64,000 nucleotides of DNA from an uncultured Acidobacteriota bacterium (GCA_963836665.1 CAWIKL010000001.1:1999818-2063817), one strand, 5' to 3'; numbered from the stretch's first letter, positions 7,283 to 61,326 are shown. Numbers and translations are program-made. The notes: a model not told the origin generated them from the sequence alone.

Positions 7283-10200
7283 ATCTGTCTGCGCCGGCGA
7301 TCAGCCGACCGATCGCGACGATCCTGCTGACGGCCGCGGTGGCGATCGCCGGCGGGATCGCGTTCGTCATGCTGCCCGTGTCACCGCTCCCCGAGATCGA
7401 TTCGCCGACGATCAGCGTCAATGCCAGCTTGCCTGGGGCGAGCCCTGACGTCATGGCGGCGGCCGTCGCGACGCCGCTCGAGCGGGAGTTCGGGCACATC
7501 GCGGGGGTCTCCGAGATGACCTCGCGCAGCGCGACGGGCTCGACGTCGATCTCCCTGCAGTTCGACTTGAGCCGCGACATCAACGCGGCCGCGCGCGACG
7601 TGCAGGCAGCGATCAGTGCGGCCCGTACCTACCTGCCGACCAACCTGCCGTCGAACCCGGCCTACCGCAAGGTCAACTCGGCGGACGCGCCGATCGCCAT
7701 CATCGGCGTGACCTCGAAGAGCTACAGCCGCGCCGCGATGTACGACGCGGCATCGACGATCCTGGCGCAGACACTGTCGCAGATTCCCGGCGTCGGGCAG
7801 GTGACCGTCGGCGGATCGTCGCTGCCGGCCGTGCGCGTCGAGATCAACCCGCGCCAGCTCGAGCACTACGGCGTGCGCCTGTCCGACGTTGCGACGTTCC
7901 TGCGGAACCAGAATGCGCACACGCCGACCGGCAGCATCGCCGACGGCCAGACGACCAGCTACATCAAGGTCAACGACCAGCTGGCGACTGCCAACGACTA
8001 CAAGCCGCTGGTCGTCAGCAGCCGAAACGGGGCCGGCATCCGCCTCGATGACGTCGCGACGGTCGTCGACGCGAACGAGAACGTCCGGTCGGGCGGCTAC
8101 GTCAACGGCTCGGAATCGGTCAGCGTGAACGTCTTCAAGCAGCCGGGCGCCAACGTCATCGAGACGGTCGACCGGATCAAGGCGGCGCTGCCCGCCCTGT
8201 CGGCGGCGATTCCGGCCGCCCAGAAGATCACGCTCGTCCTGGATCGGACGACGACGATCCGGGCATCGCTGCACGAGGTCGAACGAACGCTGCTGCTGTC
8301 GATCGTCCTGGTCATCCTGGTCGTTTTTGTCTTCCTGCGCGACTGGCGCGCGACCATCGTGCCCGGCGTCGCCGTGCCCGTCTCGCTGATCGGCACCTTC
8401 GCCGCGATGTACCTGCTCGGCTATTCGCTCGACAATCTCAGCCTGATGGCGCTGACCATTTCGACGGGCTTCGTCATCGACGACGCGATCGTCGTCATGG
8501 AGAACATCACGCGCCACCTGGAGCTGGGGATGGGGCGTCTGGCGGCGGCCTACGCCGGCGCCGCCGAAATCGGGTTCACGGTCTTGTCGATCACCATGTC
8601 GCTGCTCGCCGTGTTCATTCCGATCCTGATGATGGGCGGCATCGTCGGGCGACTGTTCAGGGAATTCGCCGTGACCCTGTCGGTGGCGATCCTGATTTCC
8701 ATGATGCTGTCGCTGACGACGACGCCGATGCTGTGCTCGCTGCTGCTGAAGCCGCACCGCCACGGCGAACGTCACGGCCGGCTGTACCTGGCGATCGAGG
8801 CCGGATTCGACGGTCTGCGCCGGGGCTACGAACGGAGCCTGGCCTGGGTCCTTCGCGACCACGCGCCGCTCGTGTTGCTCCTGTTGCTCGTCACGATGGG
8901 CCTAAACGTTCTCTACTTGACGCGAATCACGAAGGGCTTCTTCCCGCAGCAGGACACCGGCGCGATCACCGGCGGACTACAGGGGACGCAGGACTCATCG
9001 TTCGAGAAGATGAACGCCGCGCTGCAGCGTGCGGTCGCCATCGTGCGCGCCGACCCGGCCGTCGAGAACGTCGTTGGCTTCACCGGCGGCCAGGGGGCGA
9101 CCAACAGCGGTTTCATGTACATCGCGTTGAAGCCGCTCGAGGATCGGAAAATCAGCGCCAGCGACGTCGTCAACCGGCTGCGGCCAAAGCTGCTGGTGAT
9201 CCGCGAGGCGCAGACATTCCTGCAGGCGGCGCAGGATCTCCGGGTCGGCGGACGGCAGTCGAATTCGCAGTATCAGTTCACGCTGCAGGCAGACTCCACC
9301 AGCGATCTGAAAACGTATGTGCCGCTGCTCGCCCGCGAAATGGCGAAGCTGCCGCAGCTCGCCGACGTCAGCTCGGACCTGCAGACCGGCGGTCTCGAAG
9401 CGTATCTAACCTACGACCGGGCGACGGCGGCACGGCTCGGCCTGACGCCGTCGGACATCGACAGCGCGTTGAACTACAACTTCTCGCAGGCGCAGGTCTC
9501 GACGATCTACAAGACGCTGAACCAGTACCACGTCGTACTCGAGGCGCAGCCGACGTTCACCGGGAGCCCGGATGCATTGAGGAGCACCTACGTGGAAAGC
9601 GCCGCCGGGTCCGTCCCGCTCGTGGCCATCAGTACCTACCGGCCGCTGACCGGACCGCTCTCGGTCAATCACTCTGGTCTGTATCCCTCGTCGACGGTGT
9701 CGTTCAATCTGGCGCCGGGTGGTTCGCTCGACGCGGCAACCAAGGCCATCGCCGCGCTCGAGGCGCAGCTGCACATTCCGACCAGTGTGCACGGCGCCTT
9801 TTCCGGCACGGCGGAGCAGTTTCAGGCGTCGCTCGATTCGGAGCCGGTACTAATCGCGACAGCGATCTTCGCGGTCTACATCGTCCTCGGCGTCCTCTAC
9901 GAGAGCTTCGTGCACCCGATCACGATTCTGACGACGCTGCCGTCGGCGTCGCTGGGGGCGGTGATCACACTGGTCCTGTTCGACGCCGAGCTCGACGTCA
10001 TCTCGCTGATCGGCATCATCCTGCTGATCGGCATCGTCAAGAAGAACGCCATCATGATGATCGATTTCGCGCTGCAGGCGGAGCGCGAGCAGGGGCTGCC
10101 GAGCGACGAGGCGATCCTGCAGGCCTGCGTCCTGCGCTTCCGGCCGATCCTGATGACGACGGCGGCGGCATTTTTCGGCGCCGTGCCGCTGGCGTTTCGT

Positions 10201-45249: not shown

Positions 45250-46860
45250 ATGTCGACTGGAAAGACCTCGGCCTTTTACATCGTCCTCACTGCCGTCGCC
45301 GGGATGGCGGTCGGCATGGTCATCACCTCGCGACTGGACCTGACGCCGGCGTCGTCGGCGCAGACGATCGCGGTGCCGGCGGTCAACAGCGCGCCGCTGA
45401 CCGGGGCGATCGACGCGACGACCTTCCGCAACATCGCCAAGGGAAATGCGCCGGCCGTGGTCAACATCCAGACCGAGGTGCGGCAGCGCAGCCGCGATCT
45501 GACGGAGTACTTCGGCAACGGCGGCGACGATCTGCTGCGCCGCTTCTTCGGCGGCGACGACCAGGGCAACCAGGCGCCGCCGCGCCGCAACCGCGGCGGC
45601 GGCCAGGGGCAGGGGCAAGGACAGGGACAGGGGCGCGCGCAGCAGCCGGACCCGGTCCTCGAAGGGGCCGGCACCGGCTTCATCATCGACAAAGCGGGCT
45701 TCATCCTGACGAACAATCACGTCATCGAAGGGGCCGAGACCATCCGCGTCAGCCTCTATGGCGCCGAGCGGCTGGAGTCGTACGCCGCGAAGGTGGTCGG
45801 CCATGACACGCTGACCGACAGCGCGCTCATCCAGCTCACCGAGATGCCGCCGCAGCCGCTGTCAGAAGTGAAGCTGGGGGATTCGGACCAGATGCAGCCG
45901 GGCGACTGGGTCATGGCGATCGGCAACCCGTTCCGCCTCGGGCACAGTGTCAGCGTCGGGGTGATCAGCGCGCTCGGCCGTCCGTTCGGGGGGGTCCCGG
46001 GCCGCGAGCAGAACATGCTGCAGACCGACGCGGCGATCAACCCGGGAAACTCCGGCGGCCCGCTGCTCAACGTGCGCGGGGAAGTCGTCGGGATGAACAC
46101 CGCGATTTACACCGACCAGCGCTCGGCCAACATCGGCATCGGCTTCGCGACGCCGATGAACACCATCCGCGACCTGCTGCCGCAGCTGCGCAACGGCAAG
46201 GTCATCCGCGGCGTGATCGGCGTCACCGTGTCGAAGGATCACCTCACGCCGGAAACGGCGAAGGCCTTTGGGCTGCCGAACACGAGTGGTGCGCTGATTG
46301 CCACCGTCAACCCGAAGGGACCGGCCGACAAGGCCGGCCTCGAACCTGGTGACGTCGTCATCGACTTCAACGGCAAGGCGGTGAAGGACAGCGACTCGCT
46401 GGTGGCGATGGTGGTAAACACCAAACCGGGAACGGCGGCGCCGCTGACGATCTATCGCAACAACCAGCGCAAGGCGCTGAGCGTGACGATCGACGAGCTC
46501 GATCTCGAAGCGGAACAGACGCGCGGCACGCGGCGCAACGACACGCCTGAACAGCCGCAGCCGCAGCCGACGGCGACCGACTTCGGCATGACGCTCGACT
46601 CGATCACTCCCGACGTGGCGCGCAAGCTCGATCTGCCGGGCAACACCGGCGGTGCCGTCGTGACCGACGTCGATCACAACAGCGCGGCCGACAAGGCGGG
46701 GGTGGCGGCGGGCGACGTGATCCTCGAGGTGAACCGGCACAAGGTGTCGAACAAGAGCCAGGTCACGCGCGAGCTGCAGAACGTGCCGCCCGGCCAGCCG
46801 GCGTTCCTCCTAGTCTGGCGCGACAGCACCAGCGTCTTCGTCACCATGACAAAGCACTGA
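45250..46860 (+). CDS. htrA: periplasmic serine endoprotease HtrA/DegP/DegQ family with two PDZ domains (536 aa)
   Basis: TM/signal anchor, catalytic TNNHV...D..., GNSGGPLLN, and two PDZ domains (GALIATVNPKGPADKAGLEPGDVV and GAVVTDVDHNSAADKAGVAAGDVI). Confidence 0.9.
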   Translation: MSTGKTSAFYIVLTAVAGMAVGMVITSRLDLTPASSAQTIAVPAVNSAPLTGAIDATTFRNIAKGNAPAVVNIQTEVRQRSRDLTEYFGNGGDDLLRRFFGGDDQGNQAPPRRNRGGGQGQGQGQGQGRAQQPDPVLEGAGTGFIIDKAGFILTNNHVIEGAETIRVSLYGAERLESYAAKVVGHDTLTDSALIQLTEMPPQPLSEVKLGDSDQMQPGDWVMAIGNPFRLGHSVSVGVISALGRPFGGVPGREQNMLQTDAAINPGNSGGPLLNVRGEVVGMNTAIYTDQRSANIGIGFATPMNTIRDLLPQLRNGKVIRGVIGVTVSKDHLTPETAKAFGLPNTSGALIATVNPKGPADKAGLEPGDVVIDFNGKAVKDSDSLVAMVVNTKPGTAAPLTIYRNNQRKALSVTIDELDLEAEQTRGTRRNDTPEQPQPQPTATDFGMTLDSITPDVARKLDLPGNTGGAVVTDVDHNSAADKAGVAAGDVILEVNRHKVSNKSQVTRELQNVPPGQPAFLLVWRDSTSVFVTMTKH

Positions 46861-46990
46861 GTGACAATCGCCGATTGCAGACTGAAGAATGATGGATTGA
46901 CGATTGGATTGACAATCGCCAATCCAATCGTCAATCGTCACTCTGCAGTCCGTGAATCTTCAATCTGCAATCGGCAATCGCCAATTACCA
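46861..46990. repeat. cluster of CAATC/GATTG heptamer-spaced repeats, including a perfect 17-bp-stem hairpin (46895-46911 / 46920-46936)
   Basis: Read directly. GATTG occurs at 46873, 46895, 46902 and 46907. CAATC occurs at 46865, 46913, 46920, 46925, 46932, 46961, 46968 and 46975, plus a partial AATC at 46955 and a variant CAATT at 46982. Spacing is mostly 7 nt. The cluster starts immediately after the htrA stop. Local GC is far below the window average. Confidence 0.8.
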
Positions 46991-48398: not shown

Positions 48399-49384
48399 GC
48401 GTTCCTCTCTCCTCGGAGGTCGCGCCGCGCGCTCTGGTGCTGGCAGCGGGGCTGGGGACGCGGCTGCGGCCGCTGACGCTCGCCCGGGCGAAGGCCGCGG
48501 CGCCGGTCGATGGCGATGCGCTGGCGCGGCGGACGATTCGCTGGCTGGTTGGGCATGGCATCCGCGATCTCGTCCTCAACCTGCATCACAAACCGGAGAC
48601 GATTGCCGCGGCGGTCGGCGACGGGCAGGATCTCGGGGCGCGCGTGCGCTATTCCTGGGAATCGTCCGTCCTCGGGTCGGCGGGCGGCCCGCGTCATGCG
48701 CTACCGCTGATCCTGGACGGGCGCAGGCCGTCCCCTGCGGGTGGCGCAGGGGTGGCGGCCGACACGTTCGTCCTGGTCAACGGCGACACGCTGACCGACG
48801 TCGATCTGCCGGCGATGATCCGTCACCACCACGAGCGCGGTGCCCTGGTGTCGATGGCGCTCATCCCCAATCCGCGTCCGGACAAGTACGGCGGCGTGCT
48901 GGTAGACGAGCGCGGCGCGATCACCGCGTTCACCAGGCGCGGCAGTCCCGGACCGTCGTTGCATTTCATCGGCCCGCAGGTGGTGCACGCGTCGGTGTTC
49001 GCGGATCTGCCCGACGGGGTGCCGAGCGAGTCCGTTCTCGAGGTGTATCCGCGCCTGATGCGCGAGCGGCCTGGTTCGGTGATCGGGTTTGCCGGCGACT
49101 GGACGTTCCAGGACATTGGCACGCCCGCCGACCTGCTGGCGACGTCGCTGGCGCTGGCGGCCGCCGACGGGCGCGCGGATCGCCCGCGCTGGGGCCGCGG
49201 CGTACGTGTCGATCCCTCCGCGCGCGTGAGGCGCTCGGTGCTGTGGGACGCGGTGACGATCGCCGCCGGCGCGGAGATCGTCGAATGCGTGATCGCCGAC
49301 GGCGTGGCGATTCCAGCGGGCGCGCGTTACCTACGGTCGGCGATCGTGAATGGTCCCGCCGGCCTCGTCGTCGCCGCGCTCTGA
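48395..49384 (+). CDS. sugar-1-phosphate nucleotidyltransferase with a C-terminal left-handed beta-helix (329 aa)
   Basis: ALVLAAGLGTRLRPLTLARAKAAAPV (G-x-G-T-R-x-x-P-x-T-x-x-x-P-K-like). The GTG start overlaps the CYTH stop (GTGA). Confidence 0.75.
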   Translation: MSVPLSSEVAPRALVLAAGLGTRLRPLTLARAKAAAPVDGDALARRTIRWLVGHGIRDLVLNLHHKPETIAAAVGDGQDLGARVRYSWESSVLGSAGGPRHALPLILDGRRPSPAGGAGVAADTFVLVNGDTLTDVDLPAMIRHHHERGALVSMALIPNPRPDKYGGVLVDERGAITAFTRRGSPGPSLHFIGPQVVHASVFADLPDGVPSESVLEVYPRLMRERPGSVIGFAGDWTFQDIGTPADLLATSLALAAADGRADRPRWGRGVRVDPSARVRRSVLWDAVTIAAGAEIVECVIADGVAIPAGARYLRSAIVNGPAGLVVAAL

Positions 49385-49416
49385 AAAAGGGGCGACCGCA
49401 ATTACCATAGACGCCG

Positions 49417-50427
49417 ATGGACAAGCGTCACCAGGACGACACGCGAGAGCGGATCCAAGGCTACCTCGACCGTAGCGCGCTGACCGGGGCTAAGCCGCGC
49501 GTCGTGCCGTTGACGCCCGACGCCTCCGACCGGCGCTACTTCCGCATCCAGCTCCCCGACGCGCCATCAATCGTCCTCTCGCTCTACTCGGCGCCATTCG
49601 ACGTCACCGCGCTGCCGTTCGTCAATGTCGCGACGCTGCTGGCCAAGATGCCGGTCCCAATCCCGGCGGTGCTGGGGCACGCCGACGATCTCGGTGTGCT
49701 CGCGCTGCAGGACCTTGGCGACGTCACGCTGCAGGCGCACCTGGGCGCCGCCAGCCCCTCCCAGCATGCCGCGCTCTACCGTCAGGCGGTCGCCCTCATC
49801 GCGACGCTGCAGAAGCGCGGGCAGGAGCTGGCCTCGCCGGACTACCTTCCCTACGGCGTTTCCTTCGATGTCGAGAAACTGACGTGGGAGCTCGACTTCT
49901 TCACGAAGCATTTCCTCGAGGCCTACCGCGGAGTCACCCTCGCCGACGATCAGCGCGCCGAACTGCGGGAGGAGTTCGCCACGATCGTGCAGGAGCTTGC
50001 CGCCGAGCCGCGCGTGCTCTGCCATCGCGACTATCACAGCCGCAACCTGATGCTGTTCGACGGGCAGCTCTACCTGATCGATTTCCAGGACGCGCGCATG
50101 GGGCCGGACACCTACGACCTGGTGTCGCTGCTGCGCGATTCCTACGTCGATCTCACCGATCAGACGGTCGAGGAGTTGATCGCCTACTTCCTGGCGCTGA
50201 AGGGCACGCCTGACGCTGCGGACTTCCGCCGGCGGTTCAACATGATGGCGCTGCAGCGCAACCTGAAAGCACTCGGCACTTTCGGCTACCAAACGACCGC
50301 GCGTGCCAACCCCGTCTACATCCAGTACATCCCGCGCACGCTGCGTTATGTCCGCCGCAACCTGGCGCTGCCCCGTTTCGAGGGATTGCGCGAGCTCCTG
50401 GGGGCGCACGTCGAGGAATTCCGATAG
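49417..50427 (+). CDS. APH-family phosphotransferase (anomeric sugar kinase AmgK-like, 336 aa)
   Basis: Catalytic loop LCHRDYHSRNLML and metal-binding LIDFQDA. Adjacency to a nucleotidyltransferase resembles the AmgK/MurU pairing. Confidence 0.65.
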   Translation: MDKRHQDDTRERIQGYLDRSALTGAKPRVVPLTPDASDRRYFRIQLPDAPSIVLSLYSAPFDVTALPFVNVATLLAKMPVPIPAVLGHADDLGVLALQDLGDVTLQAHLGAASPSQHAALYRQAVALIATLQKRGQELASPDYLPYGVSFDVEKLTWELDFFTKHFLEAYRGVTLADDQRAELREEFATIVQELAAEPRVLCHRDYHSRNLMLFDGQLYLIDFQDARMGPDTYDLVSLLRDSYVDLTDQTVEELIAYFLALKGTPDAADFRRRFNMMALQRNLKALGTFGYQTTARANPVYIQYIPRTLRYVRRNLALPRFEGLRELLGAHVEEFR

Positions 50428-50519
50428 TTGAATCCCTAATCGTTTGATCGCTGATCCTGGATCGCTCATCGCGAATCCCGCATCGCGAATCCCCGTCTCG
50501 GGAATCCGCATCCTGAATC
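50428..50519. repeat. about 13 tandem degenerate heptamers (consensus SNNNATC: gctGATC, gctCATC, gcgAATC, ccgCATC ...)
   Basis: The terminal C of each ATC motif is at 50434, 50441, 50449, 50456, 50463, 50470, 50477, 50484, 50491, (50498), 50506, 50512 and 50519, that is, 7-nt periodicity. The array starts right after the TAG stop at 50425-50427. Confidence 0.8.
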
Positions 50520-50562
50520 GGCTCAGGGCTGCGAAGCGGTGTACAATGAGGGGTTCCCCACA

Positions 50563-51396
50563 ATGCGCTTCGGCATTTCGACACACCTGTTTCACGAGCA
50601 GCGACTCAGCCGCGACCATCTGGCGCAAATCGCCGCGTACGGGTTCGAGGCGGTCGAGGTGTTCGCGACGCGGACTCACTTCGACTACCACGACCCTGCG
50701 GCGATCGCCGAGCTGGGGACGTGGCTGAAGGAAACGGGTCTGGCGCTGCACGGCATCCACGCGCCGATTACCGATCGGCTGGACCCCGGTGACAAGTGGG
50801 GCGACGTCATCTCGAACGGCGTCAGCGACAACGCCAAGCGGCGGACGGCAGTGCAGGAAGCGGCGGCCGCGCTGGCCATCGCCAGGACGATTCCGACCGA
50901 CGTCTTCGTGGTGCACCTGGGCACGCCGACCGTGCAGGGTGGGGAGAACAACCGCGGCGCGGCCCTGCGCAGTGCGGAAGACATCTGCCGGCTGGCGGAA
51001 CCGCTCGAAATTCGCGTCGCGCTCGAGGTGATCCCAAACCCGCTGTCGGACGCGGCCTCGCTCGTGGCGATGCTCGAACGCGATCTCGACGCGCCGCGGG
51101 CCGGCATCTGCCTCGACTTCGGGCACGCGTTCCTGATGGGGGACGTCGCCGACACGATCGAGACCGTCGCCGAACACCTGATCACGACCCACGTGCACGA
51201 CAACGCCGGCAAGAAAGACGAGCACCTGGTGCCCTTCGACGGGCGGATCAACTGGGACGTGGCCCTGATGACCATGCAGAAGGTCGGCTACGACGGAACA
51301 TACCTGATGGAGCTGGCCAACACCGGCTCGCCCGCCGGCGTCCTCAAGCAGGCTCAGGCCGCGCGGCAGCGCTTCGAGAAACTGTTGGCCTACTGA
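50563..51396 (+). CDS. sugar phosphate isomerase/epimerase (xylose-isomerase-like TIM barrel, 277 aa)
   Basis: [10 protein letters not shown]..., E..E..H..D..E metal-ligand pattern ([24 protein letters not shown]). A GTG at 50539 is an alternative start. Confidence 0.75.
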
Positions 51397-51397
51397 G

Positions 51398-52695
<1,298 letters not shown>

Positions 52696-52696
<1 letters not shown>

Positions 52697-54117
52697 TGAA
52701 AATCGGCTTCATCTCCCTCGGCTGCCCGAAGAACCTCGTCGACGGCGAGGTGATGCTGGGTATGGCGCAGCAGGCCGGTCACGAGATCACGCCCGAGGCG
52801 CGGGACGCCGACGTCCTGGTGGTCAACACCTGCGCCTTCATCGACAACGCCAAGCAGGAGTCGATCGACGCCATCCTCGAGATGGCGCAGTACAAGCGTG
52901 CGGGCACGGCCTCGCGCCTCGTCGTCACCGGCTGCCTGGCCGAACGCTACCGCGATGAATTGCGCCGGGAGATCCCGGAGATCGACGCGTTGCTCGGGAC
53001 CGGCGAACTGCCGGGCATCGTCGAGGCGCTGGATGGGATGGGCGAGGGGCGAACGGCGAGGGGCGATGGGTCGACGAACGCGAACGCCCAGGTTCGGCCT
53101 CTCACCTTTCACAAGAAGTCCCTCGCGCCTCGCCCCTCGCCCCTCGCCTCCCGCGCGCAACCACCGACGTATCTCTACGACGCTTCGACGCCGCGTCTCC
53201 TGACGACCCCGCGGCACTTCGCCTACGTCAAGGTCGCTGAAGGCTGCGACTACACCTGCGCCTTCTGCATCATCCCGACGCTGCGCGGCGCGTACCGCAG
53301 CCGCGCCCACGACTCGGTGATTGCCGAGGCACGGGCGCTGGCGGCGCGCGGCGTCAAAGAATTGCTGCTGATCTCGCAGGACACGACCTTCTACGGCATC
53401 GATCGACAGGAGCGCGGCGCGCTGGCGAAGCTGCTGCGCGAGCTCAACACCGTCGACGGCCTCGAATGGATCCGCCTGCTCTATCTCTACCCGACGACGA
53501 TCACCGACGACGTCCTCGACGCGATGGCCGAGTGCGAGAAGGTCTGCCGCTACGTCGACCTGCCGCTGCAGCACGCCTCGGCCGAGGTGCTCAAGCGGAT
53601 GCGGCGGCCCGGCAATCGGCGGACCTACGACGCGCTGCTGGCGCGGATCCGCGCGCGCGTCCCTGGCGTCACTCTGAGGACGACCTTCATCGTCGGCTTC
53701 CCGGGCGAGACCGAGGCCGAGTTCGCCGAACTCGAGGCATTCGTCGCGGACACGCGGTTCGACCACATCGGTGTCTTCACCTACTCGCACGAGGAAGGCA
53801 CCCGCGCCCACGCCGCCGCCGACGACGTGCCGGCGGTGACCAAGCGCAAACGCCGCGACGCGATCATGAAGCGGCAGCAGCGCATCGTTGCGACCCGCCA
53901 GCAGGCGATGCTCGGCTCGGAGGTCTGCGTACTCATCGACGGTCCGTCGCCGGAGCACGAACTGGTGATCCACGGACGCCTCGAAGGCCAGGCGCCCGAC
54001 ATCGATCCGCTCGTCTATCTGACTGACAGCGATCCGTCGGCTTACGAGGGTGGTCAGCTCATCCGTGCGCGCGTGGTCGGCGCGCAGGGCTACGATCTGC
54101 TGGTGTCTCCTGTTTGA
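52696..54117 (+). CDS. rimO: ribosomal protein S12 methylthiotransferase RimO (473 aa, with an insert of about 40 aa)
   Basis: MKIGFISLGCPKNLVDGEVMLG (MTTase N-domain), radical-SAM CDYTCAFCIIP, and a TRAM domain at the C-terminus. The ATG overlaps the asnS stop by 1 nt (TGATG). Confidence 0.9.
53035..53155. repeat. inverted heptamer-repeat element inside rimO: (GGCGAGG-like)x4 at 53041-53068 and (CCTCGCC)x4 at 53121-53148
   Basis: Read directly. GGCGAGGGGCGA (53041-52 and 53055-66) is the exact reverse complement of TCGCCCCTCGCC (53130-41 and 53137-48). Confidence 0.8.
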
Positions 54118-60313: not shown

Positions 60314-61326
60314 TGACGGCGCCAGGAGTTGTGGCGTTGGGCATTGACGCGGCGCGCGGCATGGCCGGCGCCTTACTGATCGACAAGCCATCGGGACCGA
60401 CGTCTCACGACGTGGTCGCCGTGCTCAGACGGACGCTCAAGACGCCGCGCGTCGGGCACACCGGCACGCTCGATCCGCTGGCGACGGGGCTGCTCGTCAT
60501 GCTGATCGGCGGGGCGACGCGCCTGGCGCAGTTCCTCGCCACCGACGAGAAGGAATACGTCGCCGACATCCGACTCGGCCTCGCGACGCCGACCTACGAC
60601 GCGGCGTCGCTGGCGGAGGGTGTCCGATCGCCAATGGACGATGGGCGATGGGCGATGGACGCGGATCTCGAATCGGTTCTCGACCGCTTTCGCGGCAGCT
60701 TTCTGCAGACCCCTCCCCAGTTCTCGGCGAAGAAGATCGGGGGAGTCGCGGCATATGAAAAGGCGCGAAGACACGAAACCGTCGACCTGAAGCCGACCCT
60801 TGTCACCGTCCGGGAGCTTGAAGTTCTCGGCCCATCGCCCACCGCCCATCGCTCATCGCGCATCGAACGGCGAGACGACACGCTCGTTCGTCTGAGGGTC
60901 GCGGCGAGCGCGGGGTTTTACGTCCGCTCTCTCGCGCACGACCTCGGTCAGGCGTTGGGCTGTGGCGCGCACCTTGAGGCGCTCCGCCGGATGCGTGTGG
61001 GTCGGTTCCGCGTCGAGGACGCGTTGACGCTGGATCGACTCGACGCGGCGAGCCCCGGACGCTTTATCGCGGCCGCCAGCCTGCTTGGGGACATGCCCGC
61101 AGTCACCTTGACCGAGCCCGGCGTTCAACGGGCAAGCCACGGAAACACCCTCGCCCCTGCCCACGCGAAACGAGAGGACAGCCCCCTCTTTCGCGTCCCG
61201 GAAACGGACAACAACGGGGGCGCGGTTGCCGTATTTGTGCGACTGCTCGAGGCGGACGGAACGCTGCTCGCGGTGGCGGAAGCGCGTGGAGACGGGCTTT
61301 TGCATCCTATCGTCGTCTTAAGGTAA
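60310..61326 (+). CDS. truB: tRNA pseudouridine(55) synthase TruB (338 aa; start 60310/60313, or 60361)
   Basis: LLIDKPSGPTSHDVV, HTGTLDPLATGLL (catalytic Asp), FLQTPPQFSAKKIGG and GFYVRSLAHDLG. Overlaps the nrnA stop. Confidence 0.9.
   Translation: MMTAPGVVALGIDAARGMAGALLIDKPSGPTSHDVVAVLRRTLKTPRVGHTGTLDPLATGLLVMLIGGATRLAQFLATDEKEYVADIRLGLATPTYDAASLAEGVRSPMDDGRWAMDADLESVLDRFRGSFLQTPPQFSAKKIGGVAAYEKARRHETVDLKPTLVTVRELEVLGPSPTAHRSSRIERRDDTLVRLRVAASAGFYVRSLAHDLGQALGCGAHLEALRRMRVGRFRVEDALTLDRLDAASPGRFIAAASLLGDMPAVTLTEPGVQRASHGNTLAPAHAKREDSPLFRVPETDNNGGAVAVFVRLLEADGTLLAVAEARGDGLLHPIVVLR
60625..60673. repeat. heptamer array (CGATGGG-like, 7 units) inside truB
   Basis: cgatcgc caatgga cgatggg cgatggg cgatgga cgcggat ctcgaat, read directly. 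Confidence 0.75.
60831..60865. repeat. heptamer array (CCCATCG-like, 5 units) inside truB, reverse complement of the 60625 array
   Basis: cccatcg cccaccg cccatcg ctcatcg cgcatcg, read directly. The units ctcatcg and cgcatcg also occur in the 50428 array. Confidence 0.75.

Follow-up and report, generated by a model that had tools for sequence, protein, structure and literature searches.

Dispersed heptamer repeats have been known since 1990 in cyanobacteria and were later found in Xanthomonas. Rehm et al. (2015) described such repeats with the unit GGGAATC in Xanthomonas and GGGGAYT in Nostoc, the latter representing the cyanobacterial STRR class (PMC4692102). The arrays number hundreds per genome, are about 90% intergenic and are depleted between divergent genes; they lie 0 to 50 nt from the stop codon of the upstream ORF or overlap it, and they often form convergent pairs (PMC4692102). 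Their length and sequence vary at the same site in close species, and their function is unknown (PMC4692102). Marine Beggiatoaceae carry another kind of heptamer direct repeat, TAACTGA, which occurs as one exact unit in 2 to 6 copies just upstream of start codons and for which a translational role was proposed (PMC4679880). The intervening sequences of 23S rRNA in Coxiella burnetii and Leptospira contain an S23p ORF, and their terminal inverted repeats form a long stem that is cut by RNase III (PMC4990558). They are regarded as selfish, are sporadic in occurrence and have long been suspected of being mobile (PMC4990558). The small four-helix-bundle proteins of PF05635/TIGR02436, the 23S rRNA intervening-sequence protein family, were first encountered in these intervening sequences, and they resemble the DGR protein Avd, a nucleic-acid-binding pentamer (PMC10053308). 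In a literature search of incomplete coverage, no paper was found on heptamer repeats in Acidobacteriota or on a link between heptamer repeats and PF05635.

The locus studied here lies in a window of 64,000 nt, to which all positions without a contig prefix refer. The genome (6.65 Mb, 5 contigs, 66.5% GC) belongs to the Vicinamibacterales, Acidobacteriota. A heptamer array fills 92 of the 135 nt between a sugar kinase gene and a TIM-barrel gene, and the features of the region are as follows.

49417..50427, + strand: upstream gene, an APH-family phosphotransferase (AmgK-like sugar kinase); ORF with Pfam PF01636, E=3e-27
50425..50427, + strand: TAG stop codon of the kinase; an identical TAG stop is found in the nearest congener, G002
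50428..50519, + strand: array of 13 heptamer-spaced units (NNNNATC), read as a solo arm of a dispersed inverted-repeat family from its units, paralogues, unit order and alignment A1
50467..50493, + strand: two-unit (14-nt) block CATCGCGAATCCC, a local tandem duplication with exact copies at 50467 and 50481; TRF period 14/15
50520..50530, + strand: tail GGCTCAGGGCT, about 1.5 copies of GGCTCAG, a heptamer unlike those of the array; closes the segment absent from G002
50507..50533, + strand: small imperfect hairpin of the last two units and the tail; 10 pairs, -13.5 kcal/mol
50542..50547, + strand: TACAAT, a -10-like box conserved before the downstream gene across the order
50563..51396, + strand: downstream gene, a xylose-isomerase-like TIM-barrel protein; Pfam PF01261, E=7e-31

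The structure of the array was read directly from the sequence. From 50428 onward, units 1 to 7 were TTGAATC, CCTAATC, GTTTGATC, GCTGATC, CTGGATC, GCTCATC and GCGAATC, and units 8 to 13 were CCGCATC, GCGAATC, CCCGTCTC, GGGAATC, CGCATC and CTGAATC, the last ending at 50519. The core was ATC in 12 units and CTC in one. The outer end, TTGAATC CCTAATC, abuts the kinase stop codon; with the stop at 50425-50427 and the first array base at 50428, the start directly behind the TAG that the first-pass annotation had proposed was found to be correct. Read-through of this TAG was rejected as a TAA follows three codons further on. The spacings were 7, 8, 7, 7, 7, 7, 7, 7, 8, 7, 6 and 7, exactly 7 in 9 of 12 cases. 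The period of about 7 given in the first-pass annotation therefore stands, and its spacing list has been corrected for the second 8, which had been placed one position too late. A total of 10 ATC-to-ATC spacings of 6 to 8 nt was observed, compared to a maximum of 7 in 20,000 dinucleotide-preserving shuffles, while 44 lag-7 matches were observed compared to a maximum of 42 in the same number of shuffles. The 13 same-strand, heptamer-spaced units noticed in the first-pass annotation are thus real (P<5e-5 against shuffles). Lag-7 self-identity of the array was 0.52, versus 0.17-0.27 at lags 3-6 and 8-12.

The CATCGCGAATCCC duplication shows that the array has grown in place, in multiples of 7 nt. 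The GGCTCAG heptamer of the tail GGCTCAGGGCT itself builds arrays in the relatives L051, L063 and L071. Over its 92 nt the array contains 31 C and 19 G, with GGG in only one unit (GGGAATC), and a G-quadruplex reading is inapplicable because G-tracts are missing. Its predicted fold was no better than that of shuffles (z of -1.2 to -1.4 for RNA and DNA on both strands). The small hairpin at 50507-50533 was deduced not to be an intrinsic terminator since no T-run follows it. A search of Rfam over 49000-52000 gave no match at E<=1.

The array has kin both within the window and throughout the genome. The strings ctcatcg and cgcatcg, said in the first-pass annotation to recur at truB, do occur in the truB array (60830-60865), and the kinship of the array to other heptamer arrays of the window was upheld. 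A genome-wide scan gave strong enrichment for period 7, as TRF returned 197 arrays of at least 4 copies compared to 44 arrays of period 5 and 74 of period 8; for arrays of at least 6 copies, the numbers were 96 (period 7), 18 (period 5) and 12 (period 8). A separate scan for lag self-similarity, with a threshold of 0.62, returned 309 lag-7 arrays. An order-4 Markov simulation gave 23 arrays where 106 were observed in 2 Mb, and roughly one lag-7 hit in four at this threshold is thus due to chance in GC-rich sequence. A threshold of 0.70 together with TRF was chosen for the between-genome test for this reason. Intergenic positions accounted for 212 of the 309 arrays, the intergenic share of the genome being about 10%, whereas intergenic arrays at lags 5, 10 and 11 numbered 5, 17 and 13, respectively. 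Gene coordinates outside the window were taken from a simple codon-usage gene caller.

The share of spacers with an array was 6.3% for convergent, 3.6% for co-directional (tandem) and 1.4% for divergent gene pairs, and the arrays occupied a median of 88% of their own spacer. At 149 of 197 array edges, a facing stop codon was located within 10 nt. The most frequent unit was GCCCATC (50 arrays), and ATC or GAT was present in 43% of array consensus units, compared to an expectation that we estimate at about 26%. Arrays were present in both orientations relative to transcription, and the G-rich array strand tracked local GC skew (odds ratio of 3.7, p=1.4e-4). Between C1:700000 and C1:2200000, a region of positive GC skew, solo GAT-type arrays (G-rich on the + strand) stood to ATC-type arrays at about 34 to 5, and the array behind the kinase has the minority orientation in this region. 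The genome's longest array, with about 22 copies of GATGGAC/GATGGGC, was observed at C1:1771794-1771946 between two minus-strand genes. In 400 kb sampled from other classes of the phylum, 14 lag-7 arrays were counted, compared to 1, 0 and 0 at lags 5, 8 and 10, and inverted pairs were observed there too.

The history of the site was deduced from the nearest congener, G002, whose flanks are 83-85% identical. The G002 site reads TAG-ccgac-gcgaagcgg, whereas the window has TAG, 103 nt (50428-50530) and then gcgaagcgg, 5 nt standing in place of 103 nt. As the gap spans 50428-50530, the segment absent from G002 includes the tail. As far as sequence comparison can show, the arm entered the spacer behind the kinase stop after the split from the nearest sampled congener; in principle, the "empty" G002 site could alternatively result from a precise loss. 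Among ten congeners, the same spacer was near-empty in G002, G004, G005, G009 and G010. In G003 it contained a GATGGGC hairpin; G008 had palindromes of other kinds, G001 had unrelated sequence, and the spacer was unreadable in G006 and G007. Two further copies of the family, at C1:3279240-3279374 and C1:2687212-2687374, were missing at the orthologous sites of five congeners. All three loci compared are absent from congeners that have family copies at other sites.

At the first of the two further copies, two genes are separated precisely by a 152-nt insert (C1:3279228-3279379; loci L134 and L138-L142), within which lies a family hairpin of 135 nt. Where G002, G003 and G005 have the overlapping stop and start TGATG, the genome studied here has TGA, 152 nt and ATG. 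Since the genes overlap in those three congeners, the insert is deduced to have broken the translational coupling of the pair, and to have done so in this genome alone. No target-site duplication was detected at the junctions of the kinase-side array or of C1:3279240-3279374 when compared to the empty sites, beyond the shared A of TGATG. No same-species sequence was matched, either by exact-protein look-up or by a metagenome scan with a 22-nt gene end.

Repeats also differ between relatives at other sites. In the rimO linker (53040-53156), GGGCGAG/CCCTCGC arms are present in the window and (GGCCATC)x4 in G002 (L133, about 9200-9330); a central RPLTFHKK segment is conserved, so the site has stayed in place and its units have changed in sequence. 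Behind an htrA-like gene (46854-46952), a GATTG/CAATC hairpin spans 99 nt in the window, and its G002 counterpart (L133, 3122-3152) spans only 31 nt, with a few GAT units. The kinase/TIM-barrel spacer is a general sink for repeat elements. Other palindromic repeats were observed in it in the relatives L002, L003, L023 and L044, and also in L036, L049 and L053, one type being cgacctgaaggtcg and another cttccgcctttaggcggaag. In the relatives L008, L011, L026 and L007, long A-rich arrays of the CACAGAA/AACACAG type follow the kinase stop, in spacers of 767-1161 nt.

A blastn search with the 103-nt insert returned 23 further arms in the same genome, giving 24 with the array behind the kinase. Alignment of the arms showed that all have the same sharp outer end and that they follow the template order TTGAATC, CCTGATC, GCTGATC, GCTGATC, CTGGATC, CTTAATC, GCGAATC, CCGCATC. 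Unit order was conserved in that 2.37 of 4 variable letters matched per index in 19 arms, compared to 1.70 +/- 0.03 when the order was shuffled. The heterogeneity of the units behind the kinase was therefore deduced to be inherited from the family template rather than to result from local decay. Ten arms make up five gene-less inverted pairs, with fold z values of -7.0 to -9.1 in four and -2.6 in the fifth, and the remaining copies in the genome are about 14 solo or partial arms. By blastn, no partner arm for the array was found at its locus. Ten of the 14 solo arms face a stop codon, which is suggestive and not significant after allowing for convergent spacers. The first units of the arm (TTGAATC CCTGATC GCTGATC GCTGATC) give TGA or TAA whatever the reading frame. 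The upstream ORF terminates within the arm in at least 8 cases, repeatedly 12 nt in (for example, at C1:999675, C1:1833706, C4:18730, C4:104523 and C1:2687212), from which it was concluded that the element supplies the stop codon. Of 24 genomes from the same taxonomic family, 11 gave further matches to the arm family, compared to 0 of 16 from the order's other families; viral contigs scanned with the 18-nt arm core gave no match.

The complete form of the family was deduced from relatives. TIGR02436 genes (E=1e-16 to 1e-17) lie between arms of this family in the congeners G004 (C29) and G005 (C75) and in G015 (C279), and the array behind the kinase is in register with the arms of all three cassettes (alignment A1). 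In the genome studied here, all six PF05635 hits lie between inverted tandem arrays, namely GATGGGC/CCCATCG, GATTGGC/GCCAATC, GCGAGGG/CTCGCCC, AGAAGGT/ACCTTCT, one 9-mer pair and one 7-8-mer pair. When 30 relatives were included, flanking inverted repeats of at least 30 bits were found at 29 of 35 PF05635 loci, compared to 6 of 250 control small genes, and 7-nt periodic arms at 22 of the 35 loci, compared to 1 of 250 controls. No strict lag-7 array was found in 400 kb of four genomes of the order without a PF05635 hit, whereas 31 were found in 480 kb of four with 6-17 hits, the samples being 20-kb pieces rather than whole genomes and the 480 kb having been taken away from PF05635 genes. TRF gave 2 (weak) versus 32 arrays for the same contrast, and the genome-level split of 4 versus 4 corresponds to an exact p of 0.014.

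No gene-carrying master of this arm family was found in the genome, which has only gene-less copies, and no PF05635 gene lies inside the copy behind the kinase, where only 43 nt are left between the end of the array and the start codon that follows. Since it is a solo arm, it was deduced to be a derivative rather than a complete cassette. A gene-less family copy in G004 (C61:95470-96040, L187) has an ATC arm of about 450 nt, reached via 13-14-nt compound units (cgagtcctgAATC), and its loop holds a short GC hairpin. Some PF05635 genes are bracketed by 9-nt periodic arms, GGGTTCTYC and GAAGAACCC (C1:3755051-3755698; L169, L175 and L176), so the register is not strictly 7. A single reverse-transcriptase (PF00078) gene was observed at C2:551874-552497 within a 443-aa open frame, adjacent to no PF05635 gene.

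From these data we consider it probable, with some reservation, that the array is a terminal arm without its partner, an orphan or solo arm, belonging to an element that is mobile or at least spreads in copies and whose complete form contains a PF05635 gene. The complete element would be a PF05635/TIGR02436 gene between two inverted arms of about 7-nt units. Loss of the gene would leave hairpins, and loss of one arm would leave solo arms such as the one behind the kinase. After its entry behind the kinase stop, this solo arm lengthened on the spot, with one 14-nt duplication or more that kept to the 7-nt register. It may have persisted as the site is permissive, being outside an ORF and upstream of a promoter that presumably has no need for a conserved -35. 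By analogy with the rRNA intervening sequences, the long stem of paired copies could be a substrate for RNase III in RNA. The array behind the kinase presumably cannot form such a stem because its partner arm is missing; with no stem there would be no processing, and it would therefore most likely be a neutral relic at its locus and not a regulator. Most likely, it is transcribed as a 3'-UTR or inter-cistronic RNA and is neutral there. The relationship could also run in the other direction, with PF05635 genes homing into pre-existing hairpins. A more general proposal, which we put forward only tentatively and hold to be rather doubtful, is that bacterial heptamer repeats (STRR, the Xanthomonas GGGAATC, and the arrays within acidobacterial spacers and protein loops) are the terminal arms and debris of one undescribed kind of mobile element, a transposase-less cassette with an Avd-like four-helix-bundle protein as its sole gene product; this protein, or an RNA/DNA hairpin on which it acts, would build and spread the arrays in a 7-nt register, and the array behind the kinase would be a fossil arm.

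The first-pass annotation had suggested that unit number could set the geometry of a promoter. Its distances were accurate, as the array ends 22 nt before TACAAT (50542-50547) and 44 nt before the ATG at 50563. The suggestion itself found no support, since there is no -35/-10 pair, the upstream spacer is unrelated in relatives, and G002 has no array. A scan for sigma-70 promoters and intrinsic terminators over 50200-50800 found nothing. Of 78 relatives, 67 had TAnA[AC]T within the final 60 nt of the spacer, and in 37 of these a TGn came before the box, as in an extended -10. Spacer length in the 78 relatives ranged from 35 to 3,535 nt. Between the stop and the box lay as little as 2 nt and as much as about 3,500 nt, unrelated in sequence, and in 12 relatives the spacer leaves no room for a -35. 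Eight of the 78 have a strong heptamer array of their own upstream of the box, built from different units. The box is thus deduced to work without a conserved upstream partner, and the addition or removal of 7-nt units therefore has nothing to re-phase. TAnAAT is rare in the genome (812 copies, 58% intergenic). Before the TIM-barrel gene, (TG)GTACAAT-N4-GGTT(T)C is conserved throughout the order (50542-50560; L001-L080) and may represent a promoter together with a conserved 5' leader. The composite TAnAAT-N4-GGTT was rejected as a general promoter motif of the genome, where it has 16 copies only, and this rarity infers that it is specific to the TIM-barrel gene.

The rival explanations differ in where they place the origin or the action of the array. 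A contingency-type repeat, whose unit number would set promoter geometry or phase-vary the downstream gene, draws on the location of the array end 22 nt upstream of a conserved -10-like box, and 7-nt repeats reportedly phase-vary promoters in other bacteria, for example at the hmw loci of H. influenzae. We give this explanation almost no credence, since a -35 partner is absent, relatives keep the box despite 2 to about 3,500 nt of unrelated upstream spacer, and the array lies upstream of the promoter elements rather than between them. Furthermore, the flanking genes are of a housekeeping, metabolic type, and the units are heterogeneous (lag-7 identity of 0.52), which makes frequent slippage at the array unlikely. 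Slippage of a more general kind was also considered, in which a replication-slippage bias of the host towards 7-nt units makes heptamer arrays everywhere, four-helix-bundle genes only insert into or persist in hairpins that were there before them, and the array behind the kinase is an ordinary slippage product unconnected to the gene. This is consistent with the 14-nt local duplication inside the array, with units that differ at the same site between congeners (the rimO linker with CCCTCGC here and GGCCATC in G002), and with the length of about 450 nt reached by one arm of the gene-less G004 copy (L187). The relation of the G-rich strand to GC skew (odds ratio of 3.7, p=1.4e-4) suggests a replication-linked process, and published reasoning ties heptamers to the polymerase footprint (PMC4692102). 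However, the ordered unlike units in 19 arms and the sharp shared terminus need a common template, order-mates free of PF05635 have no strict arrays despite the same replication machinery and GC content, and in each of three genomes the gene is flanked by this one arm family. The host-slippage explanation was accordingly deemed unlikely.

Two further explanations assign the array a present role. Since it is C-rich, unstructured and directly behind a stop codon, the array is still a candidate for action at the RNA level, for example, in Rho loading. A C-rich unstructured run of this kind (31 C versus 19 G over 92 nt, with a fold no better than shuffles) could serve as a rut-like site or an insulator that keeps the transcript of the kinase apart from the gene downstream, which would have a promoter of its own. 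The array's start at the base behind the stop codon, the absence of an intrinsic terminator and the conserved -10 box downstream are all in keeping with this. Such a role was nevertheless considered improbable, as co-directional spacers display no sense-side preference for C-rich arrays (48 G-rich versus 36 C-rich), and the nearest congener and several others have no insert at this site. Alternatively, the 13 AUC/ATC triplets with their 4-nt spacers could be a binding platform wrapped by an oligomeric protein, either TRAP/HutP-like or a four-helix-bundle protein acting in trans. HutP sites are likewise built of triplets with a fixed spacer. Six PF05635 proteins are encoded in the genome, and such proteins resemble the nucleic-acid-binding pentamer Avd (PMC10053308). 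We regard this platform as highly improbable because ATC or GAT is found in only 43% of array consensus units against about 26% expected, and because arrays occur in both orientations relative to transcription. A site for a TRAP or HutP ring protein was rejected, since PF02081 and PF09021 gave no hits in the genome and both were found in the B. subtilis control. A REP/RAYT model was likewise rejected, as the Y1 transposase PF01797 gave no hits in the genome and was detected in six control genomes.

The solo-arm reading has consequences beyond this spacer. The arm family joins two things that the papers found treat separately, and in neither case with a mechanism, namely dispersed heptamer repeats and a PF05635 gene with inverted termini. 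Within the order, gene and array are linked in three ways: arms of one sequence are found both with and without the gene, 29 of 35 genes lie between arms, and the four sampled genomes that lack the gene have no strict arrays, although TRF gave two weak ones. The question "why heptamers?" thereby becomes testable on one small protein and one hairpin. The array behind the kinase, taken alone, appears to be an inert relic with no regulatory sign. For annotation, arms bring stop codons in three frames and often end the upstream ORF, and they alter operon spacers between close species.

Compared to the heptamers of Xanthomonas and Nostoc, the array shares the 7-nt unit and the core ending in ATC, and GGGAATC is itself one of its units. 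The likeness extends to dispersal, intergenic placement at stop codons, depletion in divergent spacers, convergent pairs and variability between species. In contrast, the G-tracts and G-quadruplex potential belong to the Xanthomonas and Nostoc arrays and not to the array studied here. Furthermore, the acidobacterial arrays form families with a defined outer end and ordered unlike units, and they bracket a four-helix-bundle gene, whereas no association with mobile elements is reported for those of Xanthomonas and Nostoc (PMC4692102). The Beggiatoaceae TAACTGA repeats are also intergenic, same-strand, unpaired heptamer direct repeats near ORF boundaries, but the units behind the kinase are heterogeneous, abut a stop codon and belong to an inverted-repeat family.

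REP/BIME elements (REPIN) are similar in being abundant intergenic palindromic repeats at gene 3' ends, in forming inverted pairs and in leaving no target-site duplication; they differ in that the REP unit is 20-40 nt, while the arms described here are long and internally 7-nt periodic, and in that the associated gene encodes a four-helix-bundle protein rather than a Y1 transposase. Presence/absence polymorphism at orthologous sites is shared with MITEs, whose target-site duplication is missing here. The rRNA intervening sequences have the same layout, a PF05635 ORF between inverted repeats, as the gene-carrying relatives of this family. Their stem is a unique 28 bp, whereas the arms described here are arrays of about 7-nt units spanning 50-450 nt, and the cassettes are located between protein-coding genes rather than in rRNA. 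Unlike in the rRNA intervening sequences, gene-less hairpins and solo arms, such as the one behind the kinase, far outnumber the copies that carry the gene.
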